A stretch of 64,000 nucleotides of DNA from Kiritimatiellia bacterium (GCA_046346795.1 JAXMHJ010000019.1:1305-65304); one strand, 5' to 3'; shown: positions 5,170 through 49,374, counted from the stretch's first letter. Translations and numbers: made by a program. Notes: generated from the sequence alone by a model not told the origin.

Positions 5170-5262
5170 AAATCCGAAATCCAAGTGGCAACATGATCAT
5201 TTTGGAAGAGCCGGAAAGGTTCTTCCGGAAAGTTTATGTTTGGGTGTTCTATAACCTCAACT

Positions 5263-6147: not shown

Positions 6148-6181
6148 GCCTAACATGCGCTGCAGCGAACCCGGCGTGTGC

Positions 6182-6597
6182 ATGGGGACGGGCCCAACGT
6201 GTTCTCTCCGCGGTCTTTGCGTGCTTGAGCGAAGCGGGCGAGAGAAGCGGTTTCCGCGGCGATACGTCGGACAAGGTTCGGGCGGAGCGATGACGTCCCA
6301 CCGACGGTCGGTTGTCGCCGCAGCCGCAGCCTCCATGGGCGGGAGGTTTTGCCAATCGGGAGAACGGGGGAACCACTTTACGCAAGCGCACGTACGTCCG
6401 ACCGTGAATACACCTGCCCGCATGCCAAGCTTGTCATCCCGAGTGCACACGAGGGATCTGCCCGCCTCGGCGGGCTTCCCTTATCAAACTCGCTTCGCGA
6501 GTAGATTCCTCACCCGCTTCGCGGGATTCGGAATGACCATGCCTCCGTCCCCAGGTTATTCCCCGTGCCTCAGGATGATGGGGACGGGCCCAACGTG
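6182..6597. repeat. 20-bp perfect direct repeat pair bracketing a non-coding segment
   Basis: atggggacgggcccaacgtg occurs at 6182-6201 and again at 6578-6597. The 376 bp in between show no convincing coding signal. Confidence 0.6.
6460..6525 (-). terminator. Cluster of three short GC hairpins downstream of the minus-strand ATPase gene
   Basis: The three hairpins are gcccgcc-tc-ggcgggc (6460-6475), actcgc-ttc-gcgagt (6488-6502) and cccgc-ttc-gcggg (6513-6525). They lie 85-150 nt beyond the stop at 6608 on the minus strand. There is no clear U-tract, so a terminator role is tentative. Confidence 0.35.
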
Positions 6598-6607
6598 CTC
6601 GCGGAGC

Positions 6608-7748: not shown

Positions 7749-7831
7749 GGTTGAAATCTTGCAGCGACATTGACGATTTTCAAGCCAGAAAGAATCTGTC
7801 GTCCGCGCAACCCTTCTGGTAGCGTGCGCGG

Positions 7832-10800: not shown

Positions 10801-10840
10801 AGTCCCGCTGGGGTCCGTGGTACAGGGTGCGCCCGCATGA
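7832..10840 (+). CDS. Sensor histidine kinase (HisKA_3 + HATPase_c) with a ~690-aa extracytoplasmic clan GH-D (alpha-galactosidase-like) domain
   Basis: 1002 aa. The layout is:
- a signal peptide (HLPVFLALCFPALAPVAEA)
- TIM-barrel-like motifs (GWSSWNF...VVQLDDGYQ...FPEGLPFYAEKIAAVGARPGIWIAPL)
- a TM segment (WFWVLCALLLLALAAGA) near 10085-10135
- an H-box (LAQDLHDDLGASL)
- N and G boxes (EALHNVVQHS; DDGNGL; GNGLANMRKR). Confidence 0.8.
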   Translation: MIPPRTSHLPVFLALCFPALAPVAEAAGLQLALNAGSRGGALEVPSCAGFQFSWSAEVEMRGEAVPLSSSDAGATVVGEGVLRFPGRPVELLFRGEALAGADGVVLQVGIRNTGDEAVRLRLLTPLQGRFRPRGDPRAWLITALDKPIPEQPGRVWDLPGSNQTIRVSECGGLYRRDGQGMLVGPAGDPAAFVELRISGGADGEVLLRADSLMDGVSVDPGETRWGQKVMLLAGAPAPAIRRWVDEIAKTHGARTGRGALTGWSSWNFLAREVSGKDILALLAEAGRSPPSLRPRVVQLDDGYQDMEGSWNANAKFPEGLPFYAEKIAAVGARPGIWIAPLQVNANTEWAKDPRNLEAVQGGRFDWPSASQPAGFGLLDPTHPRAREHIASCFRKLREQGFSYFKIHGDIDTTVWSNRKWTALEVMRDYFRNIRAAAGEDAFITAYGRMPNRALVGLVDACRPGDGVTRDQLRPAFDASLGVLHLNGHWFAVDNDSIFMGTDIANVSRIEGGWPLVRTWLSLVGLSGGSAITSDPWYQEGFRDYRRNLEVLTPPAREAAEVLDLCRDREWTRLIRHVARPWGRMTVALLWNPGSTERTVHLDFAAAGLDPASRYAVWSFWDNRYLGVVEGGWTTPPLAPGASQHVRFTPLAAVESRPVLVGSNLHIHCGAEEVRRVNSLQGAMEIELGGEGARDGDLFVYSRLRPELKAAEGCRAALAAAGEYVWRIRLEGRDLEKAQRVELAFLVPVTRQPWFWVLCALLLLALAAGARRYAAWRRLRFENEVLQQRQELSAERARLAQDLHDDLGASLSQIGLMTEQVERALASPEQARRELDRMYTVTRNIARQLDTMVWVVDPANDTLDKFINYLHGHAAEYLALAGIRMDFACASDPPHTDLPAKTRHHLLMAAKEALHNVVQHSGAARVSLRIRLRGSDLVMELEDDGNGLPAGGAPTSGNGLANMRKRMIELGGVFELRSPAGAGKGTLVRLTVPLGSVVQGAPA

Positions 10841-13315: not shown

Positions 13316-16300
13316 GCACCCGCACCGCCATCATTCAACACATCCGCCGGACGCTCCTGGGCCTGGCCACACTGGCCGCCGGGGCCCGTGCCGCCGACTA
13401 CACCTGGGGCGGCGGAACCGGCAACTGGAGCGACGGCAACTGGACCCCCGGTCCTGTTTCCGGCCCCACGGCCGGTTCGGACACCGCCACCATCAACACC
13501 GGCACCGTGAATTTGAACGTCGGGGGGATGAACGTAGGCACCCTGACCCTCGGCTCGGGCGGCACCTTCAACGCCTACAACTGGAACGGCACCAACACCT
13601 ATACCGGATACGGCAACCTGGTCCTGCAGGGGGGCGTCCTCAACGGCAGCGGCAATTATCACAACTGGGGCGCGGGCATCCTTGCGAACACGACCGTCTC
13701 CGGCTCGTCCGCGTCCACCATCTCCGCCTCGTCGTTCTTCAACCTCAATGGAACCGGCGGAAGCAGTTCGGTGTTCACGGTTGCGGATGTGACCGGGGAC
13801 GCGAATCCGGATTTGAATGTTTCCGCCCAACTCTGGGACGTTTCGGCGGATACGAGCTGGGTGGCCGCCGCGCTGGTGAAAGAAGGCCCGGGCACCATGA
13901 GGATCACCGGCTATACCGGCTACACCGGCGGCACGACCATCAATGGCGGCACCCTCGATGTGTCGGGCGCGAACAGCGGCTGGGGATTGCTGCGGGGCTC
14001 CGTCACGGTGAACTCCGCGGGAACCCTGGCCATCACCGGGGGCGACGGCACCGGCTTCGGCTGGAACAGCCCGGTCACCAGCCTCACCATCAATGGCGGC
14101 ACGGTGAACGCTTCCGGCGGCGCGCATATCGGGTTCGGATCCTATATGACCGTGGGATTGAGCAACGGGGGGACCATCGCGGGCAGTTGGCAGTGGAACG
14201 GCGACAGTCTGCTCGGATTCAGTTCCTCGGGCGACAGCCAGAACACCATCAACGGCTCGCTCACGCTTCGTTCCGACGCGGGGCCAACCACACCTTCAAT
14301 GTCGCCAATGGCGGCTGCCGTCGATCTGCAGGTGAACGCCAACCTGTCCGACCAGTGGCCGGAAGCCTGGTGGGTCCCCCGCTCCGGGCTGGTCAAAACC
14401 GGAGCCGGCACGATGGTCCTGGCCGGGAACAACTCCTTTGACGGCCAGACCTACATCCAGGAGGGCACGTTGATCGCCGCCAGCAGCACCGCCCTGGGCT
14501 CCGGCGGGCACGACGGCAACACCATGAGCTGGATTGACGGAGCGACCCTCGCCCTGCAGGGCGGCGTCAGCCTCGACGAGCATTTCCACGTCTGGGGCTC
14601 CGGCGTGGGCGGCCTGGGCGCCGTGCGCAGCATCAGCGGCAACAACGCCCTGACCAACGCCCCCGGCGGGGGCGGTGGCTACGCGCTTCGCTCCAACGTC
14701 ACCGTGGGCGTGGACGCCGACACCCTCACCATGAGCGGATTCTACAACGGGGACGGCGGATCCTATGGCATCACCAAGATCGGCGCCGGGACCCTCGCCC
14801 TCACCGCGATCAGCGGTCACACCGGCGGAACGACGGTGAACGAGGAAACCTGCGGCTGGCCGCCTACGGCGGCTTCGGCCGGGTGGGCGGCGTGCTCACG
14901 GTCAACGCCGGCGCCACGCTGGAAACGACCGGCGACGGCACCGGCCTGGGGTACTGGGACCAGTTGACCACCCTGAACCTCAATGGCGCGACGGCCACCA
15001 GCACGGGCGCCATGCACATCTGGAACCTGACCGGTGGCATCAACATGACGGGCGCGATCCTGCAGAGCAACAATGGTGTTTCCGACGCCGCGTGGTTCGC
15101 AACTGGAATGGAACCGTTCCAATGTGAACGTGCTGGGCAGCGCTTCGACCTCCACCATCGTGGTCGGCATCCGCATGCGCGGGGATTATGGCTTCACCGG
15201 CATCCTCTTCGATGTCGCCAACGGGGCCGCTGCCACCGATCTGGCCATCACCGCCGCCATCAACGAGGCCTCGGGCGGCCTTGGCATCACCAAGAACGGG
15301 CCGGGCACCCTGGTCCTCTCCGGCAACAACAGTTTCTCCGGCCCCACGACCATCAACAACGGCCTGGTCATTTCCCAGAACGGCACCGGCATTCCCGACC
15401 TGTCCACGGTCGTCATGGCCGACTCCGCCACCGCCGCCCTCCAGATCACCCAGTCCGAGCAGGTCGGCCTGCTCTCCGGCGGCGGCGCCTCGGGCGGCAA
15501 CATCTCCGTCGCCTCCGGCTCCACCCTCAGCACCGGCGAAAACGGCGGCTCGGCCTCCTATGACGGCGTCCTCTCCGGCACCAACGTCTCCCTCCGCAAG
15601 CGCGGCGGCGGCACCCAGACCCTCACCGGCAACAACACCTTCTCCGGCGGCGTCGAGATCGCCGGCGGCACTCTCGCCGTGAGCTCCATCACCACCTCCG
15701 GCGTCGCCCAGCCCCTGGGCATGGGCTCCGGCCCCATCCTCTTTTCCGGCGCGGCCGGGCTGTCCATCACCGGGGTCGGGTCGTACACCAGCAGCCGCGG
15801 GCTGATCCTGGCCGACAACGCCAACACCCTCGGCGTCGCCGGTACGCTGACCCTCACCGGAACAATCACCGGGGGCGGCTCCTCCGGCAGCCTGACCAAG
15901 GCCGGGGCGGGCACCTTCAACCAGGCCGGCGCCGGGAGCTGGAACGGCAACGTCTTCATCACCCAGGGGACCTACAACGTCACCTCCACCGGCAGCATCG
16001 ACAACGCCGGGGTGGTCCAGCTCACCGGCGGGTCGACCTTCAACATCGACAGCGCCACCCAGGTGCGCGCCTCGGCGCTCCAGATCGACTCCGGCACCGT
16101 CAACCTCAACGCCGGCACCCTGCGCACCAACGGCATCAGCATGGCTTCGGGCACGGCGTTCAACTGGAGCGCGGGCACGCTGACCATGCAGACCGACGCC
16201 TCCGGCAACGCCGGGGTGACCGACCGGCGCGCGCCGGGCAGCTCGCTGAGCGCGCAGCCGGTGTACGAGGGGCGGATCATCGACGTCACCGGGGCCGCCG

Positions 16301-16788
16301 CAGGCATCACCGTGCCCAACGGCGGCGTGCTGGACCTCGGCCCCACCTACGGCAGCTACGGCATGCGCTACGACCAGCTCAAGATCGCCGGCTCGCTCAA
16401 CCTCTCCTCCGCCGGCAACACGCTGAACTTCGAGTTCAACCCCTTCTTCTTCCGCCCGAGCGTCTACGGCACCGACGGCGCGGGCACGCTGATCCTGGTG
16501 GACGCCGACAGCTTCACCGGGACGTTCGAGAACTTCACCGGCGTGCAGACCGACTTCATCGGCTTCACCGCCGCCCCCGGCAGCGGATCGGTGGTGGGCG
16601 TGCTGGGCACCTCGACGATCAACCCGCTGACCGACATCCCGGCGAACACCTACTACCTGGAGTACGAGACCGACACCGGCAACGTGCTCTTCCACTACCG
16701 CCTGACCGCGACCATCCCCGAGCCCGCCTCCGCCGGGCTGATGGTCGCCGGCACCCTGCTCCTGCGCGCCCTGCGCCGGCGCCGGTAA
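13312..16788 (+). pseudogene. Autotransporter-associated beta-strand repeat / PEP-CTERM protein (paralogue 2), with two frame breaks
   Basis: The start ATG at 13312 overlaps the stop of paralogue 1 (ATGA). The reading runs in ORF 13084..14967, then ORF 14883..15563, then ORF 15073..16788. Alignment to paralogue 3 places the frame breaks near 14845 (gaggaaacc where gagggaaacc is expected) and near 15090-15094. It ends with an intact PEP-CTERM signal (IPEPASAGLMVAGTLLLRALRRRR). Confidence 0.75.
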
Positions 16789-17154
16789 ACTCCGGATCGA
16801 TTTTCCCGCCTTCGAGACCGGGTCTGGAACCGCCGGGCCGGCCGCTCTGGCAGCCAGTTGAAAACTCCCGCGGCTCGCGCGACCATTCCGACAGGCTGCT
16901 CGGAGCCCTCCTCTCGGGTGCCTTGGGCCGTCGCCGCGCTTGAGCTGCTTCTTTGTGCCACGGCTCCCCGCCGCATTCATGCACTTCCCCGGCATTGCCG
17001 CCGAGGGACGGGACCGGAGGAAAACATAAATTATTTATCGCCATGTTGCAAAAACGGGGCGTCCTTCCGCAATTCTCACCGGCTGTGTATTCAGTTCTTT
17101 CGACACCAAGAATCCGTAATGAAAACGGACAACTGTAAAGGGGAGACCGCGACC

Positions 17155-32143: not shown

Positions 32144-35100
32144 CGCATCCGGTCCCTCCGGGCCGGCTGCCAGGAGCGGCAGCGAACATTCCATGGTTGA
32201 GAGTGGTTTTCCGGCGCGCGCGCCGGGCGGCCCCGGCGTGCCTCGCCGTCCTGCTCCTCGACGGCGCGCCGGCGGGGCGCGGCCGGCGACGCGGGCGAAC
32301 CCAACGACACCCCGGCGCAGCGAAGCCGCTGGCGCCCGGGCAGCCCGTCGCGGTCAGCATCAACCCCACCAACGACGTCGACTGGTTCAGCATCGAGATT
32401 CCCCGCCGGGGACGGGCTACCTCGACATGGACCCTGCGCAGCGTCCCGCTGAAGCTCTCCCCGCGCGTCACCCTGTACGAGGGCACCAACGAGCTGGAGG
32501 TGGTCCAGAATTCCGGCCGGGCAGCCCCTGTTCCAGCGGCTGGAGATCAAGGCGCCCGGGCGGTACCAGCTCCGGCTGGACGCCGGGTCCCGCGGCTATT
32601 ACTCGCGCGGCGACCGGGCTTCGCCCGACCTGATGGAGCTGCTGGTGACCCTCCAGCCGGCCGACCGCTCCCACGAGCCGAACGACGACGAGGAAACCGC
32701 CGCCGCCATTCCCCTGGGGAAGGATCTCGCCGCGGCGCTGTTCCCGTCGAACGAGCGGGACTGCTACAAGGTGACGATTCCCGGCAACGGCGGCGGAGTG
32801 CTGCGGGTCGCCGTGACCAACTGCCCGCTCGCGCGCGTTTCCATCGGTCTGCGGAACCCCGGGGAGGGCTGGATGGGGAACGGCGAAGCCGCGCTGCGCG
32901 GCGATCCGGTGTATTTCGAGAAGACCGCCCCGACCGGCGGGGTGTTTGTGGTCGAGATCCGCGACCAGGACGGGGGCTCCTCCGCGCCGCTGCCCTACGG
33001 GTTCCGGGTGGATTACCAGGAGCCGCCCGCGGCGACGGGGCCGGTCACGCCGTTCTCCCGCGCGGTGGAACTCCAGCCGGGGGTGCCCCTGCGGCACGCC
33101 CTGTCGGCGCGGGAACAGACCGACCTGTACCGCGTCGTGATCCCGGAACCGGGCCGGGGCATGCTGCATGTGCGGGTGGACGACGTGCCCGACACCATCG
33201 CCCCCGAGGTTTCCTTCTACCGCGAGGACGGCCGCGTGTCGGACACCACCGCGCGCAAGCGGGCGTGAGCCTGCCGTCCAGCGGGAGCAGACGAAGCCCG
33301 GCCCCGTGTACTTTCACGTCCAGGACGGCTACTTCAGCGACGGCGGGGTCTCCTCCGGCGCGCAGGATGACTATTCGGCGCAGCCGTATTCGGTGCGGGT
33401 CGACTTCATTCCCGCCAAGGACGCGGGGGAGCCGAACGACGGTCACGACACCGCGCGGGTCCTCCAGCCGGGCGAGACCGCGGAGGGCACGATCTTCCCG
33501 CGGGGGGACCAGGATTATTTCCGGCTCGCGCTGCCGGCCGGAAAGCAGGGCGTGCTGGAGATCCGGCTGGACGGCATGCCGGACAACCTCTTCCCGCATC
33601 TGCGCGTGGACGACGTGTCGCGCCGCCGTCTCGACGACCTGGAGAAGACCGTCGATCGCGGCCAGTCCGCCGTCTGGACCCGGAACGTCGCCTCCGGCGG
33701 CGACTTTTTCCTGATTGTCCGGGACGGCGCGCTGGACGGCCGCGGCCGCGAGTCGTGGGACGGCTCCGCCTCGCTGCAACCCCTACCGGCTGACCGCGCG
33801 GTTCACCGAGGTCGCCGGCGACCCGCAGGAGCCCAACGACACGATCGAGACGGCCAGGCCGGTCCAGCTTGGAAAGCCGGTTTCCGGCCTCGTCTTCCCG
33901 GGCGGCGACAACGACTGGTTCAGTCTGGCGGTCGATGAAAAGCAACTGGGCGTGCTGCGCATCGAGGCCGGCCCCTTCCACGACGCGATGCGGCCGATGA
34001 TCGAATTGTACGACCCCGCGAAACAGGCGATCCGCCGCTGGCAGGCGCGCTATTCCGCGACGATGCTCTGCGAGACCTCGCTCGACAAGGCCGGCACCTA
34101 CTTCTTGCGGATCGTCTGCCAGCACACCCGGGCCGGCGCCGAGATCAGCCCGCCGGAACAATACGACACCCGGCCCTACACCCTCTCCGTGTCGCGCGTC
34201 GCGCCGTTTGCCGGCGCCGTGGCCGACCAGCCGGACGACGCCCTTCTTCCCTCCGCCACCCTGGTGACCGCCGGCGCGACGGCGCGGGGCATCATCACCA
34301 ACCGTTGGGACCGCGACGCGTTCCAGCTCAAGGTGGACGCGGCGGCCGAGGTGACCGCGCAGATCCTGGAGGTCCCGGGCGAACAGGACCTCTACGGGCA
34401 CGGGTATTTTCTGCCCGACGGCGGGCCGGCGCCGGCCCCGTACAAGGCCCTGCACATCCACGGGCCGCGGGGCGACTTCTCCCTGGCGGACCGGTATCCG
34501 GAAATCAATTTCGACCGGTTCGAGGAGGGATCCGAGGAGGCGAAGAACACCCTGGCGAATCCCGAGGCCCTCGCCCGGTACAAGGCGGTGATCATCGAGG
34601 TGCTGCACCGCCCCGAGGCGCTGGAACTCGCCAATCCGCGGGTCCAGCAGAACCTCGACAAATTCATGCAGGGTGGGGGACGGGTGCTGGTGCTGACGCC
34701 CTTCTGCGACCTGCCCTTCTTCAACCTCAAGGTGGAGCAGATCAACGGCTGGCACAAGGACCAGGTCGTGATGCCGCCCGCGCCGCACCCGCTGCTGCCC
34801 GCCCCCGGGACCTTCCAGGTGCGCGGCTGGGGTGTGCAGGAGAACATCGGATTCCTCACCGGCTGGAAGGAGGGCCGGGGTTTCGGGGCTGCTCGGCCAC
34901 GCCTCCAGGCCGGCGGCCGCGGCGGTGTCGGTCGCGCGTCCGGTGGGCAAGGGCTGGCTGGTGGTCGACACCCAGACCACCGGCACCCGGCGGCCTATCC
35001 ATGCGCGGACTGGAAGGTGCGCGCGCTGCTGGGCCTGCCCGCTGCAGAGCCTGGGCGGATTCAGCAACTCCTGCCTCTTCGACGGTTCCCCCTGGAGGGG

Positions 35101-35705
35101 CAGCCGGAATCGTTCCGCTTCCGCGTGCCCGGCCCCGGCCGGTTTACCTGGTGGTGCACGAGCGCGAGGGCCGCGCGCCCGCCAAACCCGCGCCCTATGT
35201 CGTGCGCCTGCTGACCTCGCCCGCCACTTGGCCGCGCCAGGCCGTCCTTTGTGGAGAGCGGAGGAGCTGGCCTCGCCCGCCCCCGGGAAGCCGGTGGAGA
35301 CCGCCGTGCCCGCCACCGGCGCGGCCTGGTTCCGCTGGCCGGGAGTCGCGAACAGCACGATGTCGCTGGCCCTGGAGCAGGTCCCGGCCGACGCCGATCC
35401 GGTGCTGCGCATCTATCACTCCCCGGCGGCGCAACCGGAGCGGCCGCGCCGCGTCCTCTACCTGCACGGGAACAACGGGGATGCGCGGATGGGCTCGAGC
35501 TACCCGGAATTCGACCTGGAGCGGATCGAGTGGAACAGCGCCCGGGCCGACACCGTTCTGCTGTCGCCCCGCCTGTCCTCCCGGGAGGCGGTGGTGGTCG
35601 TCCCGCCGCCCAGGCAACGCCCGAACGACTTCGGACTGGACCGCCCCGATGTGCAGAAGGCGGTGGAGCAGTATGCGGCCGGCGGCGGGGTCTTTCTCGT
35701 CTCAG

Positions 35706-38700
35706 GGCACGGTGTCCGGTCGCCTGTTCGGCGCGCGCAGCGACGCGGTCCAGTGGCGCGACGAGTGGCTTCAGGAAACGTGGATCACCGATCCCCTGCT
35801 GCGGCCGCGCCGGCGCATGGACAAGCTCACCGGCCTGGCCGGCTACGAGAGCCTGGGCCACTGGGTGCTGCCCGCGGACGCCGGCTGGCGGGTGGCGCTC
35901 CGCGGCTGGTTTGCGGAGCGGGCGCAGCCGGTGCTGGCGTTCCGGGCCGTCGGCAAGGGACAGCTCATCCTGAGCACCCAGCCCCTGGGCATCAGTCGGA
36001 ACCTGGAGGACGCCCGCTGGCAGCTCCATTCGTTCCTGGGCGTCACCAACCGGCTGGAGCAGGTGGCCGTGGTGGACCGTTCCGCGGGCCTGAGCGCCGG
36101 GGGCGCGGAGTTCTTGAACTTCGAGCAGCAGCCGGGCACGTACTACCTCGGGGTCGAGGAGCGTTATGAGTCGCAGCCGCAGTCGCGCATGCTGTTGAGG
36201 CGTTCCCTGCGCGTCGCGGACCGGCCGCTGGAGCCCGACGACACGCCCGCGCTGGCGAAGCGGGTTCCCCCGGGCGTCGAATCCGCCGCGAACCTGCTGC
36301 CCCGCGACGACCGGGACTGGCGGCGGATCCAGGTGGACGAGCCCGGCGTGCTGCAGGTGCAGGTGGGCAACGTTCCGGACAACCTCGATCCCGTGCTGGA
36401 GATCGGGCGGGCCGCGCCGCCGGCCGCGCCGCTGCGCGTGCTCTATCTGGAGGGCAACCCCGCGAACGGGATCGACGAGAGCCGCTACGAGGGCGTGGCC
36501 TTCACGCGGATCGATGCCGCGGCCCCCGGGGCGACCAACATTCTCGCCCGGCTCGACGAGCTCCAGATGCTGGTCATCGCCTCGCTGTCCGACGCCGCCC
36601 AGTTCGGATTGAACCGGAAGGCGGCCCACGAGAGGATCCGGGCCTTCGCGGAGCGCGGGGGAAAGGTGCTCGTGTGCGCGCCGCAGGGCGTCAGCTTCGC
36701 CGAGAACAGTCCCGCGATGGGCGGGGTGCTCGAGGCGTGGAGCAGCGAATGGGACGGGGGCGGCTGGCGGGCCTTGAACCTGACGGACGGGTTCGCCCCG
36801 CCCGGGCAGCACGGTCGCGGCTGGTGCTGCGGGAACGGCGCGAAATTCCCGCACGCCCTCACCTGGTCCTTCGGCGGCGTGGCGCGCGCGATCGACCGCA
36901 TGGTGGTCCACAACAACACCAACACGCAGGGGGCCCGGGCGCGCAGCCTGGAGCTGCTGGCGGGGGCCGACACCAACTCCCTGCGGCGGGTGGGCACCTT
37001 CACCGCCGCCGACACCGACGAGCGCCAGGAGTTTTCCTTCCCCGCCGTGAACTGCCGGGTGGTGCGCCTGCTGGTGAACACCAATTACGGCCACGCGGTG
37101 GAGACGCAGATGGGCGAGGTCCAGTTTTTCGGGCCGGAGTCCATCCCGGGCTTCCTCGGCATCCGCAACGACGGGGTTGCCTCGGGCGGAAATCTCGACA
37201 CCGTCCATCCGCTGCACTGGATCGTGCGCGGCCGGGCGGCCGGGGACGTCAACGGCTGGCCGGACTACGGGCGCGACGGCCGCTGGCTGGATCCGGAGGG
37301 CGCGGGCTTCCTGGACCTCTTCCCGGAGCACGGCGACCCCGCCCGCCGGACCGCCACCGCCCTGCGGCAGACCGGCGGCGGCTGGATCGCGGTGGACGCC
37401 CAGCGCCTGACCAGCCCCGCCAACCAGGCCGCCGCGGCCTGGAAGTGGCAGAACTATCTCGATGTCGCCTCCGGCCGGATCGGGGAATTCGACCGCACGC
37501 AGGACGGCGCGGACGGCGGCACCGAGACGGTGGTGCTGCCGACGCGCGGCGGGGAGGATTTCCTGGTCGGGATCTCCGACCAGGTCGCCAAGGACAACCT
37601 GGGCAACCAGTCCCCCGCGCCCTGGGTCTTCTCGAGCCTGTTCCGTCCCGCGGGCCTGGCGAACGAACCCAACGACACCTGGGAGTCGGCCACGCCCATG
37701 GTCCCGGGCGGAACCGTCCGCGACAATTTCTTCCCGGAGAACGACCACGACTGGTTCCGGTTCCCGGTGGAGCAGTCCGCCGATGTCGATGTCCGCCTCC
37801 TGGACGTGCCCTCCAGCGTGGATGCCGGGGTGGACATCTACCGGTACGAGGCCGGGATCGCGCCGCAGCGCGTTCTCTATCTGACCTGCCGCACCGACAC
37901 CGACCTGGACCGGCGGGACTACGGCCCCTTGCCGCTCCGTTTCACGCGGGTCGACGCCGGCACGCCCGGGGAGGCCTCCGCGTGGGATCTGCTGGACTCG
38001 TCCACGGTGGCCATCCTCGAAGGACTGGACGACCGCCATCGTTTCGGCATGGACCTGCCGGAGACCTACCGGAAGATCCAGCGGTTCGTGGAGCAGGGCG
38101 GCACCTTCATCCTGCTCGCGCCCGGCGCCTACTCCTACAGTGCGATCGGCCGGGGCGGCGGGGCGAAGCTGGCGGGCGCCTCCGAATCCATGAACGACTC
38201 CTACTGGGGGCCGCAAAACCTGGTGGACGGATACTGGGAGGAGGGGAACGGCCGGGGCGGCTGGTCCTCGCGCGAGGGAAGTCCCTTCCCGCACCGGGTC
38301 GTGTTCGAGACCGCGGGACCGACCCCGCCGACCCTCGACCGGCTGGTCGTTCACAACACCGCGCAGCGGCCCGAGCGGGCCGTGCGGGAGCTGGAAATCC
38401 AGTTCGCCGACCGGAACGAGGACGGCGCGTTCAAGTCGGCGGGCCGGTTCCAGTGCACCAACAGCACGGTGCGGCAGGAGTTCTCCTTCCCGCCCGCCGC
38501 ACCCCGGTTCATCAAGGTGCTCATGCTCTCGAACCACGGCGACAAGGAGGAGACGCAGTGCGGGGAGATCGAGTTTTTCGGACCCGGCGGGATGGAGGCG
38601 CCCTTCGGCGTCCCCCACTTCCGGGGCCTCGAGTCCGGTTCGCGGATCGCCGCCACCGATCCCGCGCACTGGATCGCCGCCCGGCGGGAGCAGGACGGGA

Positions 38701-40180
38701 ACGAATTCTGGTACGCGCGCTGGAACGGCCACTTCACCGGCTGGCGGGAGCAGGGTTTCCGCATGGTGTTCGCCAGCGGCGCCAACACCAACGACTTTGC
38801 GGTCACCCTGGCCCGGCCGGCCGGCAAGGGCTGGCTCGTGCTGGACAGCCAGGATCTGGGCAATCCCGAGAACGCGCAGCGCAACGAGTGGAAGCTGCTC
38901 AACTATTTCCGCATGCCGTCGACCCGGGTCGGACGCTACAACCAGACCACCCGCGACAACGCCCCGGGAGGCGCGGAGATCTTCCGGTTCCCGGCCTCGC
39001 CCGGGCCGTACTACGCCCATGTGACCGGCCTGCCCGCCGGCGCGTTCTCGGCGCAGCATTACCGGCTGTCGCTCGCGGCGCACCCCGTGGAGCGGGCCTT
39101 CGAGCCCAACGACACCGCCGCGCAGGCGACGCCGCTGCAGCCGGGCGTGGTCCACCGCGTCACCTTTTTCCCCGAGCGGGACGCGGACTGGTTCAAGGTG
39201 GACCTGCCCGCGGGCGCGCCGCTGGTCTTCGAGACGCTGCGCATCCCGGCGCGGATGTCCCTCCGCGTCCTGATCTATGCGGGAACCAACACGCAGGAAA
39301 CGGTCCAGACCTTCGGCTACCGCGGTCCGGGCGTGCCCGTCATGGGCCGGTTCGACCCGAAGGCCGGCGGGGTCCACTACCTGCGCCTGGTCGATGAGAA
39401 CGGCGAACGGCAGCCGTGCCTGGAGCCGCTGGAATTCCTGGTCCGCTACGCCGGCAAGGCCGCGCCGACCCCGCTGCGCGTTCTCGCGACCGCCCCGCCG
39501 GCGGAAAGCGCCGGCGTCTCGAGCAACGCCAGCTTCCGGGTGATGTTGTCGGCGCCGCTCGCGGCCGACGCCGTTCGCGCCGGCGCGCTGGCGGCGAAGG
39601 GTTCGCTTTCCGGCGAGGTGGCCGGCCGGGTGTCGGGCGATCCCGCCGCCGGCACCCTGGTCTTCACCCCGGAGAAGCCGTTCCGCCCCGGGGAGACCGC
39701 CACGATCACCCTGCCGGCGGGCCTCCGCGACGCCGCGGGCAACGCCCTGCCCGCCGCGTATTCGTGGCCAGTGGTGATCCGGACCGACGCGGCGCGGCAG
39801 ACGGAATGCGTCTTCCGCATCGAGCTGCAACCGCCCTCGCCGCTTCCACCCGGGTCCGCGCGCGTCACAATTTCACCATCCGTTCCGCTCCGCGCCCCGC
39901 CGGAAATCACCGCCGTCACCGACGCCGGCCGGAATCTCGCCCTCTCCGCGCCGGTGAAGGACGCCGCCGGCAACTGGTCGTGCACGATGACGGTGCCCGC
40001 GGGCCTTCCGCGCCAGTCGGTGCTGTTCGCCTGCACCGCCCTCGACCAGCAGGGCCGGCGCGCCCGCAAGATCGCGCAGGGCGCGCGCTGCGAGGTGGAC
40101 GGACAGCCCCCGCCCGCGCTGGAGGGCGTAACCGCACGGCCCGGACGCAACGGCAAGGCGGTGCTGTCGTGGCCGCGGCC
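35706..40180 (+). CDS. Intact in-frame segment of cistron D: split-PPC / GATase1-like / discoidin-like super-modules, a terminal PPC and the first Ig-like units
   Basis: This is part of ORF 34305..40688. It contains:
- EPND-type PPC openings (LEPDDTPALAKR at 36232, NEPNDTWESATP at 37663, FEPNDTAAQATP at 39100)
- two F5/8-type-C-like stretches (FPHALTWSF...IDRMVVHNNTN...RSLELL...QEFSFPAVNCRVVRLLV...GEVQFFGP, and the paralogous 38.2-38.6 kb copy). Confidence 0.75.
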
Positions 40181-40594
40181 GCTGGGGTGGACGACCTCGG
40201 CGGCTACGAGGTGTACCGGGCGGAGACGGCGGACGCGGCGCGAGGCCTCGACCCTGGCCGGCCGCCTCACCGGCGCCGACGTGCTCACCTGCGAGGATCC
40301 CACCCCGCGCGACGGCGTCTGGCACTACCGGGTCGCCCTGGTCGACCAGGCGGGCAACCGCGGCCCGCTCTCCGCGCCGGCGGCGGTGACGACCGACCGT
40401 GTTCCGCCGAAGGCCGCGGTGGCCGCGGTCACCGCCCGGGTCGTCCGCAAGCCCGGCATCGAACTCCAGTGGACCGCCGCGACCGGCGACGCCTTTGCGG
40501 GCTACAGTCTCTTCCGCGTACGGGAGGGCGAGCCCGCGCCAACGCCCGCCACCGCCGTGCCGTGGGCCGAGCCGGCGCCGGACGTGCTCTCGCC

Positions 40595-42035
40595 CAGATC
40601 GTGCCGGGGACGGAGGCCTACCGGTTCTACGTGGCCACGCACGACTCCGCGGGGAACATCGGCCCGCTCTCGCCGGCCGCGCCCGTAGTCCTCGACACCC
40701 GCCGCGCCCAGGCCCGCATCACCCTGGACAAGCCGTCCCCGCTCGGGGCGGGCACCTTCCAGGCGGCGATCCAGTTGAACGAACCCCTGGCCGCCGCGCT
40801 GGTCGCGAAGGTGCGCATGCCCGGCGGGGAGCTGCGCCCGCTGACCGTCCGCGCGCTCTCCGCGACCAACCAGACCGCGGCGCTGACCATCGCCGAGACC
40901 GACGCCGACGGATGGGCCTCGTTTGTGCTGGAGGGCGCGGACCGGTACGGCAACGAGGGGATCTACATCGAGGGCGGCGAGTCCTTCACCATCGACACCC
41001 GTCCGCCGCTGGCCAGCATCTATCCCAAGGCGGGCGCCTGGCTGGCCGCCGGGACCAACACGGTCACGGTGGATTTCAGCGAGGACGTGCGCGACCGGCC
41101 CGTGCTCCGCGCCGGCATGGCCGGGCGCACCAACGAGGTGTTTCTCGCCCGGGTGGAAGGGCGTCGCTATCTCGGGCTGGTCGTGCTGGACAAGTCGGCC
41201 CCCAACGGTCCGGTCGAGTTCTCCGTCGAGGCCGTTGATTCATTCGGTCACCGCGGCGGGCAGGTGGTGCGGGGCGGGCGCGCCGAGGTGGACACCGCCG
41301 CGCCGGACGCGCCCCTGTCCCCCGCGGCCGCGCCGGCGCCGGACAAGACCCTCGCGATCACCTGGCTGGCCTCCACGCGCGAACCGGTCGCCTTCTACCG
41401 GCTCTACGGCTTTTCCAACGCCACCACCCGCGTGCTGCTGCGGGATGAGATCCGCGACCTGCGCACGGCCATCAAGCCCGACCGGCCCGGCGCGCTGCTG
41501 CTCGCGGTCGCCGCCGTGGACCGCGCCGGGAATGAAAGCCCCCTCTCCGAGACGATCCGCGCCGAGTACGACCTCACGCCGCCGCCACCGCCCTCCGGGA
41601 CCACGGCGTCGGTGCTGCGCGACGGCCGGGTCAAGGTCGAATGGAAGGCCCCGGCTGTCGCCGAGCCCCTGTCCTACGCGGTCTGGCGCTCGACTACCCC
41701 GCTGGCCGGATCGACCAACCGGGTGAAGGTGGCCGTGACGAAGGACCTGTTCGTCCTCGACGAGCCGAAGACCTCCGCCGTCTTTCATTACGGGGTCACG
41801 GCCCTCGACGCGGCCGGCAACGAAAGCCCCTTCGCCGCCGCCGCGCCGCTGGATGTCGACACCCAGCCGCCGGTCGCAACCCTGACCCTGTCTCCGGTGG
41901 CGGGTACTCGTGCCTATTCCGAAAGCTACTATGTGCACTACGACATCCCGGTGCTGACCCTCCGGGAAGTCAACGTCACGCTCGACACCACCGAGCCGCT
42001 CGCGCAGAAGCCGCGGCTGCGCTACCGTTCCCGCG
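40595..42035 (+). CDS. Intact in-frame segment of cistron D: alternating Fn3-like and Ig-like units
   Basis: This is part of ORF 39416..43177. It shows recurrent YRFYVATHDSAGNIGPLS, LLLAVAAVDRAGNESPLS and FHYGVTALDAAGNESPFA motifs. These are separated by D(T)..PP.A.I......P units. Confidence 0.7.
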
Positions 42036-44571
42036 CGCACGATGTGCTCCGCCGACATTCCCCTCACCGGCCAGGGCATGCGCTGGAACGGCGCGCTGGT
42101 CCTCGGCGAGCGCGTGGACGACGGACTGCTGACCTTCCTGTTCGAGGGTGTCGATGGAAGGGCAACCGCGGGGTGGACATCGAGCGTGGCAAGGGCAACG
42201 TCGCCTGGGTGGACTCCGCACCGCCGGGGCCGGTCGCCACCCTCGTCGTGACGCCCCGTCCGCTGGGGAAGATGGAATGCGTCTGGCAGCCCCCGGCCGG
42301 GGAGGGCGCCGAGATCCTCACCTACTCGGTCTACCGTTCCCCGACGCCGTTCACCGCCGTCGCGGGCTCAAGCCGGTCGCCAGCCAGTTGCGCGAAACGT
42401 TTCACCGACAGTCCTCCTGCCGACGGCAACTACCACTACGCGGTGGTGGCCACGGATCAGGCGGGACTGAACGGCCGCCTGGCCGCAGCCGTGGCCGCGC
42501 GTTCCGACGGACGTCCGCCCGCGGCCCCGACGGGCGTGAAGGCCACCGTCCCCGAGAAATCCTGCTGGTCTGGGAAACCGCCGAAACCGAACCGCTCACC
42601 TGGCGCGTCCTCCGGGACGGCAAACCTCCTGGCGGACGGCCTCCTCGGGAAAATTCCACCGCGACATCCCCGAAAAGGACGGCGTGTACTCGTACACCGT
42701 CGTCGCGGTCGACGCTTGCCGCGGGCAACACCCAGGGGGGGCCTGGAATCGGAGGCGGTCAAGGTGGAGTTCACCAGCATGCTGCCGGCGGCCGACATCA
42801 CGATCGACCCGCCGTCTCCCGCCAAGTCCTCCTTCCGGGTGGTGGTGAAAACCCTCCTGTCCGCTCAAGGAAGCCCCGGACCTCTTCATCCGGTTCGCCC
42901 GCGGCGAGCCGGCCCGCGTGCCGCTCGCATCCGCCGACGGAAAGAAGGGCGAATGGGTGGGCAGCGTGGTGGTCGACGCCGGGACGCCGGACGGCCCCGC
43001 GGAGTTCCTGTTCCAGGCGGTCTCCGCCGAAGGCAAGCGCGGCGCCCGCATCCGCTCCGGGGCGCGGCTGGTGGTGGACACGCGGGCGCCGGCGGCCCGC
43101 ATCGCGCTGGATCCGCCCGCTCCTCTCCATTCGGGCCCGGTGCGCGTCACCCTGATCCCCGACGAGCCGCTTGGTGAAATGCCGGCCCTCCGCTCACCCT
43201 TCCGGGCGCGCCCCCGCGCGAGCTGGCACTGGCCGCGACGGGCGCGGTTTACGTCGCCCGTTTCGAGATCACCGACGCCGATACCGACGGCATCGCCACC
43301 TTCTCCTTCTCCGGCATCGACGCGGCCGGCAACGAGGGCGCGGCGCTTGCCGGGTCCACGTTTGTGATCGACCAACGTCCCCAAGCCGCCCGCGGGACTC
43401 AAGGCGGCGGCCGTGAAGGACGGGCAGGTCGAGCTGGGGCTGGCAGCCGCCCGTCTACGCCGCCAACGAGGTGTCGGACCAGCTCGCCGGCTTCCGGCCC
43501 GCCGCCTCCAGCCTCCGGTGACCACGCTCAAGGGTCTGACCCTGCTTGAAGCCCTCGTCACCCGCAACCCGTTCCAGACGCGGGTGCCGGCCGATGGTAA
43601 AACCTTCTTCGCCGTCACCCTGCGGGACACCGCCGGCCTGGAAAGCGCGCCTTCGAGAACGCCTCCGCGGTGATCGACCGGGTGCCGCCTGCCGCGCCCG
43701 CGCCTGCCCCTGCCGGTCGTGAAGGACGGGGTTGTCACCGTCACCTGGGACGCCGTGGACGACGCCGCGACGTACGCGGTCGAGATGCAGGCCCCGTCGG
43801 ACCCCGACTACCGGCCCGTCGCGGAAGGGTTGACCCGCGGGACGTCATGTCTTCCGTCCGCTGGAAGGGGGGCGCTACGCCATCCGGGTGACCGCCCTCG
43901 ACGCGCTGGGCCACCGCAGTCCTCCCATTCCCGCGGTTTCGAGCAGACCGCCCCGCTGGCCGCGATCCGCCCCGCCTCCAATCCGGTCGGCGCGGGCCGG
44001 CACAAGGAGACGACCCGTCCCCTGGTCGCCGCCGCGCCGAAACTCGCCTTCACCGACTCGCCGGAAAAGCGCAGCCCGTCACCACGACCGGCGAAGGGAA
44101 GAGTTGGACGGGCGAACTGGTGGTGGACGCGTCACTCGCCGCCGGGGAGGACATTTCAGCTACGAGGAACCACGCGCGACCAGGGAACTCCGGTGACGGC
44201 ACCGGCATCCTCGCGGGGGCGGCGCTGGCGCTGGACTTCACCCCCGCCCGCCGCCGCGATCATCTTGAGCGGTTCCGAGCCGGTGGTCGGCGAGAAGGCC
44301 CTGCTGAGCGCCGGCCGTCATGCGTTCCTGCTGCGCGCGACCGGAGCTGTTAGAGGCCGCCCCGGTTCTCACGTTCACCCCGCGCGGCGCGGCGGCGGAG
44401 CGCCCCGAGTTGATCCAGACCCGCCCCCGCGGAATGGACCGGGGTCATCCTCGTCACCACCAACGCCCTCCGGCGCGGCGGTCTTCGAGCTGGAGGCGGT
44501 GACCGGCAGGGCAACAGCGACGCCGTCACGGAGAACCGGGTCGTGGATATCGACGTCGATCCGCCCGCGCG

Positions 44572-46060
44572 TCGCCCAGATCCGCGCCGCGCCCCTGCCG
44601 GGCGGCCGCTGCCGCGTCGAGTGGACCGCCCCCTACGGCAGGGACGGCCGGCCGGACGCCCGGGCCAACACGTTCAACCTCTACCGCGCCGGGAGCGAGA
44701 TCGTGGACGCGACCGGGCTGGAGGTGTACCGGCGTCTCCAGCGCGTGCTGGGCTATGTCGACACCCCCACGGCCGACCGGACCTACCACTACGCCGTCGC
44801 CGCGGTGGACGAGGCGGGCAACGTCGGGCCGCTCTCCGGCAGCGCGAGCGCGGTGATCGACAAGACCGCCCCCGGGGTGCCCATGGACGTTCGCGCCACC
44901 GTGATGAGCAACGGCGTGGTCCATCTCGCCTGGACGCCTCCACCCGGGGAAAAGCCGCTGTTCTACAACGTGTACCTGGAGCAGAATCCCATCCTGGCCA
45001 CCGCCGGCCTGAGCCCCATGAACCGTGGCGTCACCTGGACCGAGATCTACGGCACGCCCAATCACGATGGGAAATACTATTTCGCGGTCACCGCCGTGGA
45101 CGCGGCGCTCAACGAGAGCGGCGCCAGTGAAAACGCCGGGATCGACTACAAGGCCATCCCGCCGATCGCCCGGTTCTTCCTGGAGCCGGACATCTGGCTG
45201 ACCGACGGGTCGTATCCCCTGCGGCTGGAGGTCACCAAGAAGCTGGTCGAATCCCCCTCCGTCGAGATCAACTCGGAGTCCGGCCGGCGCATCCCGCTGA
45301 GCTTTTCCGGCGGGGACGACCGGTGGAGCACCACGCTCAAGATCGACCCCTCCTTCCCCGAGGGCACCTATGGATTCATCTTCCGCGGGAGGGACGAGGC
45401 CGGCACCGTCGGGGACGAGATCGCCCGCGGCCCGCTGTTCCACGTGGACCGCACCGCGCCGCTGCCGCCCTCGGGACTGGTGGTGGAGCCCGACACCCGC
45501 GGCACGCCGGGCGCGGTGAAGCTCTCCTGGCACACGCCCAAGCGCGAGGGGCAGACCACCGAGGTGCCCATGCGGTACCACGTGTTCCGCAGTTCGCAGC
45601 CAATCACCTCCACGCGGGGCCTGCGTCCGGTTCAGGTGGTCGGGGTGAAGTTCGCCAACCTTGACGACTACGGTTGCCTCGACGTCCCGCCCGGCAACGG
45701 CACGTTCCACTACGCCGTCACCTCCCTCGATCTGGCCGGCAACGAATCCGCCCCCGGCGACAGCGCCCCCGTGTCGGTGCAGTCGGACGCCCCCCGCGGC
45801 TCCTTCTCCCTCTACCGCGTGCGGGGAACGGAGATCGTGCCCGCGAGCACGGACGCGCAGGGCGTGCCGGTGATCGGGCGCGGCAAGGCGCGGGTCCGGC
45901 TGGCCACCGCCGTCCCCCTCAAGGCCGCGCCCGCGGTCACCTGGCGGATCAAGCAGGAGGGGCGGAAGGCCCTCCCCGTCGTCATGCAGGGCAAGGGTTC
46001 CGAATGGTGGGGCGAGTTCGAGGTCGCGGAGAACCTGGAATCCGGCGAGGAGGCGGTGTT
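44572..46060 (+). CDS. Intact in-frame segment of cistron D: Fn3-like / Ig-like units
   Basis: This is part of ORF 43719..46157. It contains the motifs YHYAVAAVDEAGNVGPLS, YYFAVTAVDAALNESGAS and FHYAVTSLDLAGNESAPG. Confidence 0.7.
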
Positions 46061-46229
46061 CGCCTCTCGGCCACCGCCGCGACCGGGGCGGCCGGCAGCC
46101 ACATCAGCAAGGGCGAAACCTTCCTCGTCGACACGACCGGTTCGGCGGGGTGGATGATCGTCTCGTCCACCTTCAAGATGAAGGTCAACGTGAAGGCGCG
46201 CCTTGCAGACGCCTTCGTCCGCGCCTGCA

Positions 46230-49200
46230 GGAGGTCCGCCTGGTCGCTCCGGAGGAACTGGCCGCTCCCCCCGCGCTCTCCCTCGCGCTGGGCGGAGGCA
46301 AGCCGGTCGCCATTCCGCTGACGGGCTACGGTCGGTACTGGTCCGGCTTCATGGAAATCCCGGGCGGGGCCGACGGGATCGAGGGCCGCTTCACGTTCTC
46401 CGGGGTCGACCTGGCGGGCAACCCCTCCACGCAGATCGCGAAGGTCCGCTACGAGCACGAGGACGACGGCGAATTTCCCACCCCGCGCCGCACCGCCAGC
46501 TACGCCACCACCGGGGGGCGCTTCACCACTGACACCCGCCCGCCCGAGATGCCCTCCGGCCTGCAGTTGGAGATGCGCAAGCTCGGCGTGGCCGTGATCC
46601 AGTGGAAGGAGCCCGGGGGCGATCCGAACTCCTACAACCTCTACCGGTCGCTCACCCCCATCACGGACACCGCCGGCCTCGTCCCGGTGCGGCGCGACAT
46701 CTACGCCACCGTCATCGTGGACGACCCGCCCGTGGACGGGAACTACTACTACGCGGTGACCTCGGTCGACTTCGCCGGCAACGAAAGCGCGGTCTACGAA
46801 TCGAAAAGCGTCTTCATCGACACCATCAAGCCCGAGTTGAAGATCAAGGCCGCGCCCCTCGGGGACGACTTTGTCATCCTGCTCGACGAGGACGCGCCGG
46901 AAGAGCTTTCCCTCACCCTGCGCTTCCCCGGGCAGCGCGACATCCAGGTCGAGCTGGGCGGGTCCTCCGGCGAGCTGGCCGAATACAAGGTGGTCCGCGG
47001 CCCGAACGGAGAGCGGCGCGTGGTGCTGCCGCAGCAGGTCGGCTTCTTCAACGGGAAGGTGGAGGTCATCGTGCACAGTCCCGACCCCGAGGGGAACCTG
47101 GTCGAGGAGAAGACCGAGCTGGAGATGAAGCAGATCGCGGCGGCCACCGGGGGAACGGTCGGCAGCGCCGACGAGCAGGTGCAGCTCATCATCCCGCCCG
47201 GCCTGCAGCCGGTCATTCCCGAAGGCCCCGGCAAGGGGAAGAGGGTGGGGGGGTATGACAACATCTTCTTCATCAAGTACGCCAACATCCCGAAGGAGAA
47301 GCCCGCCGTCGTCGAGGGGGAAAAGCGCAGGCGCGAGGACGTCGACCCGCTTCCGCCCGGCCTGGAGATCATCGGCGTGCCGTATGTCATCGAGATGAAC
47401 CAGCCCCCCGAGGAGCCGCTGGAGTTGAAGGGCTCGGCCACCCAGGCCGACCTCTCGCAGCTCAAGCCGCTCATGGCCAAGCTGAAGATGAAGGTGCCCG
47501 CGCAGTATTCCGACGCGGTCGAGGATCCCGACTACCTCAAGTCACGCCTGCGCGTCATGCAGTGGGTCCCCGTCTCCGCCAACCAGAAGGCCGGCCGGTG
47601 GGAGCCGGTGCCCGATGTCGAGATCGATCCGAAGACCGACGAGTTCATCGTCCCCGTCAACCGCATCACCACCTACGTGATCATCGCGGAGCGCACCCCG
47701 CCCGCCGTGCGCGAGCTGCAGCCCGGCCGCGACGCGACCATCACCGAATTCCAGCCGGTCATTTCCTGTCTGCTGGTGGACAAGGGCACCGGACTGGCCG
47801 TCGGGGCCGAGAACCGGATCGTGCTCACCCTCGACGGGCGCAAGATTCCCGAAAAGCAGCTCGAGATCTCCCGGGGCGACCCCACCGAGGTTCGCGTCTC
47901 CTTCCGCCCGGCGGAAAAGCTCGCCCCGGGCCGCCACACGGCGGGCATCCGCGCCGAGGACGTGGTCGAGAACGTGGCCGACGTGAAATGGCAGTTCCTG
48001 ATCGACAACAAGCCCCCCGTGCTGCTCGGCACGCGGCCCGGCGAGGGCGAGCGGCTGCCCGTGGCGCGGCCGATGATCCAGGTGAGCGCGTCCGACGAGG
48101 GGGGCGTCAACGCGGCGGCCTGCAGGATCTCGGTCGACGGGGCGGACCTGCCGGCGGCCTCGGTCGGCTTCGACGCCTCCGCCGGGCTGCTCACGGGCTT
48201 CCTCCCCTGGGATCTCGCCAGCGGGCTGCATGAGGCGCGCGTAGAGGTGGTCGACGCCGGCGGGCTGTCGACGGTCAAGACCTGGACGTTCGCGGTGGAC
48301 CTGGAGGCCCCCGTGCTCGCCGCCCGCGTGCCCGAGACCGGGACCCGGGTCGATCCCGCCGACACCCGCATCGCCTTCGTGCTCAGCGACGGACTCGGCC
48401 AGCCCCAGGTGCTCGACTTCCGCATCGACGGGCGGAAGATCCTGCCGGCGCGCTGGCGGCTCGCCCCCGGTTTTTCGTTCGATCCCGCCAAGAACGTCGC
48501 CGCCTTCGCCGCCGGCACGCTGCCCTCGGGCGAGCACGAGATCTCGCTGGTGGTGTCGGACGACCTGGGCAACACGGCGGTGCAAAGCTGGACCTTCAAG
48601 AGCGACGTCCCGGCCGCGCTGGGCGTTCGCGAGCGGGACTTCGCGCCCCCGGCCCTGGTCGTTTCCAACAAGATCAGCCGGTCGGTGGCGGTGTTGCCGG
48701 TGATCCCGCCCGGGAGCGGGGGTTCCCCGGTGCAGCCGCCCGGACCCGGGGCGGACCGACCCGCCGTTTTCACGCCGGTCTCGGAGGCGGATCTCAAGAC
48801 CGCGCAGCGCGTCCGCAAGCTTTTCGCCGATGCCGGGTACGAGGAAGGGCGTGGGAATCTGGAAAAGGCGAGGGCGCTTTTTGCGGAATGCATGTCCGTC
48901 CACTCGAATCAGGTCGTGGCCGCCCGCCTTGCCGCCCTCGAAAGCCGAATGACCTCCGCGGAGCTTAACCCCGGGGCGTCCGCCGCCGAGCCCGGCGAGA
49001 TGGAGCTGCTCAAGGCCCGGCGGGCCCGGGCGGAGGGCGGTTATCTGGAGGCCAAGGGCGACCTGGCCGGCGCCCTCGCCGCGTATGAACAGAGCCTGTC
49101 CTTCGTACCCGACCCGCGGCTGCGCCAGCGGGTGGCCGAACTGCGGAAGAAGCAGGGAACCACGGCCCCGCCAAACCCGCCCGTCGTCGCGCCGCCAGCC

Positions 49201-49374
49201 GTGTCCCCCGACGTCATGCTGGCCGCCCGTCGCGCCCGCGCCGAGGCCGCCTACCTCGAGGTCAAGGGCGAGTACCGCAAGGCCCTGGAGGCCTACGAGA
49301 AGGCGCAGAAGCTCTATTTCGATCCCGCGCTCGTTCCGGTGATGGACAAGGTGCGGAAGAAGATGGAGCCCTGA
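46230..49374 (+). CDS. Intact C-terminal segment of cistron D: Fn3/Ig-like units, SbsA/CopC-like Ig units and three terminal TPR-like helical repeats
   Basis: This is part of ORF 46150..49374; the frame join to the upstream segment is approximately at 46225-46235. Its content includes YYYAVTSVDFAGNESAV, three units of the type P.V..(L/T).P..G.......P.I...(L/A)...G.G(V/L)......I.L.(L/V)DG, and the C-terminal repeats ARRARAEGGYLEAKGDLAGALAAYEQS and ARRARAEAAYLEVKGEYRKALEAYEKA. Confidence 0.75.

Follow-up and report, generated by a model that had tools for sequence, protein, structure and literature searches.

The pre-peptidase C-terminal-like (PPC) domain of Pfam family PF04151, with which the collagen-binding domains (CBDs) of clostridial M9 collagenases (ColG s3, ColH s3) are compared here, is one contiguous unit of ~110-125 residues that stands in tandem arrays in many proteins; in the ColG and ColH CBDs (also in the ColG s3b structures) an EPND...DxDW motif binds Ca2+. 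The giant adhesins MpIBP (of the RTX type), SiiE, and LapA bind their ligands through a distal region borne on an Ig-like stalk, and the PA domain inserted in the catalytic domain of subtilases is a known case of a domain within a domain. Here we describe a locus in a 64,000-nucleotide stretch of DNA from a Kiritimatiellia bacterium (GCA_046346795.1, JAXMHJ010000019.1:1305-65304). This whole stretch is called the window below; it is ~70% G+C, and coordinates are positions within it, on the + strand unless stated otherwise. In our view the locus probably specifies the ligand-binding portion of a giant secreted adhesin-like surface protein, built around four tandem nested modules (m1 to m4) in which a PPC domain is interrupted by a class-I glutamine-amidotransferase-like (GATase1-like) α/β domain, which in m3 and m4 is in turn interrupted by a discoidin domain.

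When the modules are set beside these described systems, both the likenesses and the departures are clear. They share with PPC domains and the M9 collagenase CBDs the E-P-N-D, D-x-D-W/F, and G-x-Y-Y...Y-x-L strands, have the same length once the insert is subtracted, match them from end to end at the profile level, and are arrayed in tandem; unlike them, they are interrupted between strands 5 and 6 by 200-350 residues, have no peptidase attached, and score just below the Pfam gathering threshold. The insert resembles non-catalytic GATase1-like domains (2gk3, 3soz, GH42 domain B, the second domain of GlmA, ThuA, DUF4350) in fold and in a pattern of a hydrophobic strand followed by G, then D-x-V-V-L-D, then G-G-x-F-x-x-L, but it sits in a β-sandwich, hosts another domain, and would be extracellular instead of cytoplasmic or part of a glycosidase. 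The discoidin (F5/8 type C, CBM32) domain has the expected fold and is nested in an α/β loop instead of being appended. As with PA in subtilases, a whole domain occupies a loop of its parent and the parent halves are predicted to reassemble, although here there are three levels of nesting, the parent is small and all-β, and the nested unit is itself repeated in tandem. Very large secreted size, a long Ig/FN3-like array, a lectin-type region, and probable Ca2+-binding linker motifs recall the giant adhesins; in contrast to those, neither an RTX nor a type I secretion signal was seen here, the protein has an N-terminal signal peptide and C-terminal TPR (a transmembrane helix in the homologs P0007 and P0047), and its lectin domains are displayed by nested insertion.

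The split PPC domain is illustrated by m4 (37659-39098, 480 residues), an intact long module and the one that was modeled. Its N-half (residues 1-69, 37659-37865) carries the EPND...DxDWF motif and strands 1-5, and its C-half (residues 419-480, 38913-39098, AEIFRFPASPGPYYAHVTGL...HYRLSLAA) carries strands 6-9. Searched intact, m4 matches PF04151 only at its residues 431-457, which correspond to model positions 43-70, the final third; the N-half alone gives no match and the C-half alone 13.2 bits. When the two halves are spliced, the match runs in one stretch over positions 2-70 of 70 (24.5 bits, E 5e-5), and full-length matches were obtained for three of six spliced modules. A comparison of profiles gives the same picture. 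We aligned a profile of nine spliced modules (A5) with one of ten contiguous PPC domains (A4), the latter including proteins that score 72-88 bits on PF04151, using hhalign, and found 125 aligned columns (1-128 against 3-128 of 131; probability 99.85%, E 6.4e-31) with a single 3-column gap located exactly at the splice. Aligned separately, the N-halves fall on A4 columns 3-67 (E 1.3e-23) and the C-halves on columns 71-128 (E 4.4e-11). Judged from these alignments, no portion of the PPC domain is missing or doubled and the insert enters at the loop that joins strands 5 and 6, so that in place of one contiguous domain there is a break of 200-350 residues after profile column 67. The flanking segments, proposed in a first-pass annotation to be two halves of one PPC domain, thus behave as such.

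Structure prediction agrees with this assignment. From nine aligned long modules (A2), AlphaFold2 modeled m4 with a mean predicted local distance difference test score (pLDDT) of 87.4 and a predicted TM-score (pTM) of 0.87, and both PPC halves have pLDDT values of about 77-93. According to DSSP the model contains strands at residues 19-62 and 423-476, β-α-β elements at 70-153 and 320-416, and an all-β region at ~170-310. A pTM of 0.87 over 480 residues indicates a confidently fixed arrangement of all parts of the module. With Foldseek on the whole models the PPC fold itself found no match, the lists being dominated by the largest sub-domain, and sequence searches of the PDB returned only sub-significant matches of N-halves to collagenase CBDs (for m4, a weak match to 5iku). 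The Ca2+-ligand motif (E-x-N-D, then D-x-D before the third strand) is present in m4 as E3, N5, D6, D29, and D31, which align with CBDs of the ColH/ColG type; it is degenerate in m2 and in two homologous modules (P0004b and P0005b).

The insert accounts for ~200-215 residues in m1 and m2 and ~350 in m3 and m4, not the 300-450 first suggested, a range nearer to the length of whole modules (326-480 residues). Its α/β fold was assigned on residues 1-340 of the homolog P0003, a short module lacking discoidin that is 35% identical to m1 (alignment A3), for which AlphaFold2 gave a model with pLDDT 79.5 and pTM 0.78. The best Foldseek matches of that model are STM3548 (2gk3_A, E 4.9e-8) and STM1381 (3soz_A, E 6.7e-8), followed by GH42 β-galactosidases (1e-7), an arabinopyranosidase, and the second domain of GlmA-type glucosaminidases (5e-5), all of these with probability 1.00; a β-1,2-glucosyltransferase and a lacto-N-biose phosphorylase were also matched. 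We therefore assign the insert, on the strength of this model, to the class-I glutamine-amidotransferase-like fold as found in GH42 domain B, in keeping with the ThuA/GH42M-like fold proposed earlier. At the level of sequence the likeness is fainter: sub-threshold Pfam hints point in the same direction (DUF4350, E 0.0035-0.2; ThuA, 0.15 in one of eight sequences; BPL_N, 0.11; GLMA_2nd, 0.09), but the inserts belong to none of the ThuA (PF06283), Glyco_hydro_42M (PF08532, which gave no match), and DUF4350 (PF14258) profile families, and the resemblance is one of fold only. ThuA, Glyco_hydro_42M, DUF4350, and GATase1_like are members of one Pfam clan.

No Cys or His is invariant among nine aligned modules, and a Cys-His-Glu triad is accordingly lacking; the position of the "nucleophile elbow", after the GGxFxxLxP strand, is held by an invariant Pro (P155 of m4). 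Because of these two features the α/β domain is not expected to act as an amidotransferase, and the aligned sequences indicate that the insert is non-catalytic. The GH42-type and GlmA-type domains among its closest structural matches are presumably non-catalytic accessory domains too, a statement that does not extend to STM3548 and STM1381.

Comparison of long with short modules places the discoidin domain within the α/β domain, directly after the GGxFxxLxP strand. The nesting is therefore PPC, then GATase1-like, then discoidin, making three levels in m3 and m4; the discoidin domain, rightly recognized in these two modules by the first-pass annotation, had been taken there for a second insert beside the α/β segment. 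In m4 the first part of the GATase1-like domain (37866-38153, RVLYL ... GGTFILLAP) covers the β-α-β element at residues 70-153, its fold being taken from the homologous short module; the discoidin (38154-38594; PF00754 match at residues 174-300) follows, and the second α/β part (38595-38912, ...GFRMVFASG...GKGWLVLDSQ...WKLLNYF) was delimited by DSSP and by alignment with the short modules that lack discoidin. Pfam F5_F8_type_C was found in seven of nine long modules (best E 1.6e-14). The scores for PF00754 and PF22633 in the window are lower than those of homologous modules in P0005 and P0006 (53 bits), with m4 at 24.8 bits against a cut-off of 28.2 and m3 at 26.2 against 27.8. The m4 model matched discoidin-type folds only (Foldseek E ~5e-8, probability 1.00), namely IFT25, sialidase CBM32, SUN, APC10, and CBM32 structures as well as 2bzd. 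TMt values of 0.83 for 2yc4_A (IFT25), 0.78 for 4a41, and 0.74 for 2xqx identify a galactose-binding-like β-sandwich.

The four modules follow one another without a gap. Module 1 (34222-35248), defined by tblastn and the frame path, is a short module without discoidin, co-linear with residues 5-341 of the P0003 short module, and consists of a PPC N-half (~34222-34428), a GATase1-like insert (~34429-35040), and a PPC C-half (~35040-35248). Module 2 (35249-36227), also short and without discoidin, was found by tblastn and is spanned by alignments of P0002 and P0003; its N-half (~35249-35455) is degenerate and has lost the EPND motif, and it is followed by the GATase1-like insert (~35456-36044) and the C-half (36045-36227). 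Module 3 (36228-37658, 477 residues) is long and intact, as established by tblastn and alignment with Pfam matches to F5_F8_type_C_2 and Sad1_UNC, and comprises an N-half (36228-36431), α/β part 1 (~36432-36713), discoidin (~36714-37148), α/β part 2 (~37149-37469), and a C-half (37470-37658). In tblastn searches against the window m3 and m4 are 31% identical over 450 residues (E 1e-65), while m1 and m2 match m4 over residues 1-155 and 357-462 and leave the middle unmatched. Comparison of the translated sequences thus confirms m3 and m4 as intact paralogs and a repetition far beyond chance.

Complete PPC domains frame this array on both sides. A ladder of PPC N-termini detected by tblastn begins with five contiguous PPC-like domains (32290-34221; starts near 32300, 32670, 33060, 33425, and 33830), located with the N-halves of m3 and m4 and three-frame translations, continues through the modules at ~34222, 35264, 36231, and 37659, and ends at 39096 with a terminal contiguous PPC (39096-39446). 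This last domain matches positions 1-68 of 70 of PF04151, scores 16 bits on its own, and is the first row of alignment A4. There are no orphan halves, a complete PPC preceding the N-half of m1 and another following the C-half of m4. These results largely bear out the layout read at first pass: the module starts given there are within a few bases for m1, m3, and m4 and ~20 off for m2 (found at ~35249); the four tandem modules and terminal PPC are present and conserved co-linearly in P0002, P0003, and P0006, although m1 and m2 do not lie in a single reading frame; and contiguous PPC-like domains do occur upstream, but the example at 33427-33800 crosses a frame change at ~33779, the five together being read through several such changes.

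To place the modules among known proteins, we classified the best 150 of 1230 hits from an exhaustive HMMER search of 1.84 billion representative proteins. Ninety-eight have the PPC N-half only, as part of ordinary PPC arrays, 36 have discoidin only, and ~15, counted as protein clusters, have the junction from PPC to α/β domain. The junction carriers are P0002-P0008 and about seven more representatives, P0001 being the window's own open reading frame (ORF). P0002, P0003, and P0006 align co-linearly with the window, to which they are 30-40% identical, and have the same order of short, short, long, long, PPC, and Big_5. P0004 (4684 residues, an intact ORF present on four contigs that come from NCBI and ENA), P0007 (5024 residues), and P0047 are complete proteins; they open with a signal peptide and PPC arrays, continue with split modules between which complete PPCs stand and with a long FN3/Ig array, and end in a TPR or a transmembrane helix. 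In P0005 a single split module (843-1331) has a complete PPC on either side, and its halves can therefore pair only with each other. In some homologs an extra β-rich insert of ~110-130 residues lies between strands 2 and 3 of the GATase1-like domain (P0004 ~935-1060, P0007 ~790-905, P0008 ~895-1005, P0048 ~300-420), which is thus host to zero, one, or two inserted domains, an observation in favor of its serving as a display platform. The sample record name of one homolog suggests groundwater.

Other searches returned less. A search for related loci in GTDB genomes found ordinary PPC arrays only, NCBIfam gave no match, no Pfam or NCBIfam model covers the whole module, and a literature search for the nested architecture found no description. 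A word-indexed protein search with m4 yielded no hit among 8000 word-sharing candidates, though the identical P0001 is in that collection, so negatives there do not signify absence. Taken together, the nested design is real, rare, and apparently undescribed, yet assembled from three known folds.

Other explanations of the same arrangement can be weighed against these data. The flanks might not form one domain: they might be two unrelated small β-sheets or linkers, or a module's C-half might fold with the N-half of its successor as a circularly permuted PPC, with the α/β domains lying between domains. Each C-half directly precedes the next N-half in the array, which makes swapped pairing topologically conceivable. 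We nevertheless regard it as highly improbable: in the PPC profile the halves occupy complementary stretches that do not overlap and follow the native order, the model of a single module is confident including both termini, swapping would leave m1 with an unpaired N-half and m4 with an unpaired C-half, and isolated split modules between complete PPCs occur in P0004, P0007, and P0008 as they do in P0005. That the α/β insert is an enzyme (of the class-I amidotransferase, ThuA, or glycoside-hydrolase-accessory type), making the modules catalytic and not display scaffolds, would fit the fold matches to the GATase1-like superfamily and to glycoside hydrolase domains and the weak ThuA match. Set against these are the lack of an invariant Cys, His, or Glu triad, the Pro after the GGxF-x-L strand, the absence of above-threshold matches to any catalytic Pfam or NCBIfam model, and the presumed non-catalytic nature of its closest structural relatives of the GH42 and GlmA types, and we consider an enzymatic role very unlikely. 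An assembly chimera or chance juxtaposition in this contig, which does have clear quality problems, has practically no chance of being correct; the same architecture and junctions recur at 25-40% identity in independent metagenomes and metagenome-assembled genomes (MAGs; P0002-P0008), including the intact P0004 ORF, and these homologs exclude it.

The quality of the contig bears more heavily on whether the modules still belong to one protein. We predict a probable single giant gene of ~17 kb at 32197-49371, overlooked at first pass as were the frame changes, encoding a secreted surface protein of ~5,700 residues, from a Viterbi path through G+C content at third codon positions (GC3), co-linear homologs, and Pfam. 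Its parts are, in order, a signal peptide, the five contiguous PPC-like domains, the four split-PPC modules, the terminal PPC, Big_5, a long FN3/Ig-like array, and a C-terminal TPR, with Pfam matches to Big_5, fn3, Big_13, and TPR_2 along its length; the signal-peptide-like N-terminus was read from the public contig JAXMHK010000019.1. The coding frame as seen from codon-position G+C changes repeatedly at 32.1-35.7 kb and 40.6-46.3 kb, the GC3 path contains 24 frame changes within 32136-49369 (with a further disruption at 28800-28930), and only 35703-40589, with the C-part of m2, m3, m4, the terminal PPC, and Big_5, is one clean frame. Module 1 has at least four changes (~34888, 34985, 35140, 35225) and m2 one at ~35703. 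The complete homologs P0004 and P0007 are co-linear with 33.3-48.6 kb of the window through all of these changes, and the P0006 alignment is uninterrupted across the switch at ~40580; because these alignments cross the frame changes, we treat 32197-49371 as one gene.

The frame changes were compared with the public contig (GCA_046346815.1), which carries P0001 and is 99.63% identical to the window, with 92 differences. Those at 32.17-33.56 kb are mostly 1-nucleotide indels, and none fall within 33824-46064. Over the N-terminus and the first two PPCs the public contig keeps a single frame in which the window is interrupted, whereas near 32.92-33.07 kb it is the window that stays open and the public contig that shifts. 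Since each assembly thus mends the frame of the other, the indels that differ are artefacts; those shared by both assemblies are probably indel errors as well. The remaining explanation, that the locus is a decaying pseudogene whose ~24 frame changes are real and whose modules no longer form one protein, seems to us rather unlikely but deserves more weight than those above. The frame changes at 33.8-46.1 kb are identical in window and public contig and could for that reason be real, the indels are not enriched at homopolymers, and the changes are patchy, with stretches of 4.9 kb and 5.5 kb free of them. However, GC3 stays at ~0.9 in every frame segment, homologs give long unbroken alignments in each segment, and the excess of indels over substitutions at 32.17-33.56 kb in two assemblies that repair one another is a signature of sequencing error. 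Homopolymer error as the specific cause was tried and rejected, with 7 of 24 indel differences between the assemblies at homopolymers against a background of 32%; sequencing error is still the best reading. A separate cluster of ~45 differences at 46857-47728 consists mostly of substitutions at third codon positions, unlike the indels upstream, and has the appearance of true strain-level variation or of a segment that has recombined.

Returning to the nested modules as parts of one secreted protein, the following arrangement can be envisaged. The chain would leave the PPC (collagenase-CBD-type) sandwich after strand 5, build the α/β domain, and return for strands 6-9, so that the backbone of a fiber would run from PPC to PPC. 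Where EPND...DxDW is retained the string of PPC domains would probably be stiffened by Ca2+, by analogy with the CBDs of ColG, which depend on Ca2+ (PMC6168687). The α/β domains would form side branches holding the discoidin lectin domains off the axis for multivalent glycan binding. They might alternatively or additionally serve as arms for lateral association; GH42 domain B associates in trimers. We favor the reading already raised at first pass, a carbohydrate-binding cassette displayed on a PPC scaffold, as a plausible one; the likely role is that of a branched, non-catalytic unit with which a giant adhesin displays lectin domains. More tentatively, and in our view with the odds against it, the nested cassette may be a branching element of the fiber, in which Ca2+-stiffened PPC beads bear arms that present lectins, cross-link fibers into a sheath or lattice, or both, in concert with the other two giant proteins that a conserved cluster of three genes encodes.

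Several points weigh against this interpretation. Glycan binding, Ca2+ binding, and surface location are predictions. The α/β fold was assigned on the P0003 homolog and not on window sequence, with TM-scores of only 0.46-0.51 to the best small targets, and the alignments supplied to AlphaFold2 were shallow (nine and eight rows). No window copy of the spliced PPC, or of the discoidins of m3 and m4, reaches its Pfam gathering score alone, that for PF04151 being 25.9 bits, and contact between the PPC halves is read from confidence values, DSSP, and profile mapping.

If the reading holds, a small all-β domain can tolerate and conserve a very large nested insert, and tandem duplication can act on the nested unit as a whole. 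The modules would probably form the tip by which surface proteins of a rare family, 4-6 thousand residues long and from uncultured high-GC bacteria, bind their ligands, and would offer a natural scaffold for the sideways display of binding domains from a rigid fiber, of use in protein design. The architecture also defeats standard annotation, since Pfam sees almost nothing and database searches pick out the PPC N-half only, while about two dozen frame changes lead automated annotation to split one protein into ~ten "hypothetical proteins".

Upstream of the giant gene lie three large ORFs (20749-32143), A (1848 residues) and B (842 residues), both without a Pfam match, and C (1113 residues; FlgD_ig, Big_13, CHU_C). 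They are homologous, at 24-36% identity, to two genes downstream of P0004 in another MAG (L005 24730-34055), where B and C are one ORF, and the split between B and C here may be another frameshift. On the basis of this homology, A-C and the giant gene are assigned to a conserved cluster of giant proteins with rearranged order.

Farther upstream, 15049-20727 holds two large + strand ORFs of 579 and 1313 residues, the second with five Pfam matches to PATR (passenger-associated transport repeat). Near-identical mirror-strand ORF translations (15561-15971 and 19500-19910; 15975-16346 and 19914-20285) suggest that the two share segments by recent duplication. An LpxI-like ORF is also among the neighboring ORFs. 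A low-GC island at 4000-8000 (0.60-0.63 against ~0.70 elsewhere), which may have been acquired horizontally, contains a 207-residue ORF (5524-6147) whose N-terminus is signal-like and, on the minus strand, two overlapping ORFs (6608-7435 and 7182-7850) resembling a single ATPase-type gene broken by a frameshift. At 7832-10840 is encoded a protein of 1002 residues with a C-terminal HisKA_3/HATPase_c histidine kinase, in which an N-terminal region of ~790 residues has no Pfam match at E <= 0.01.

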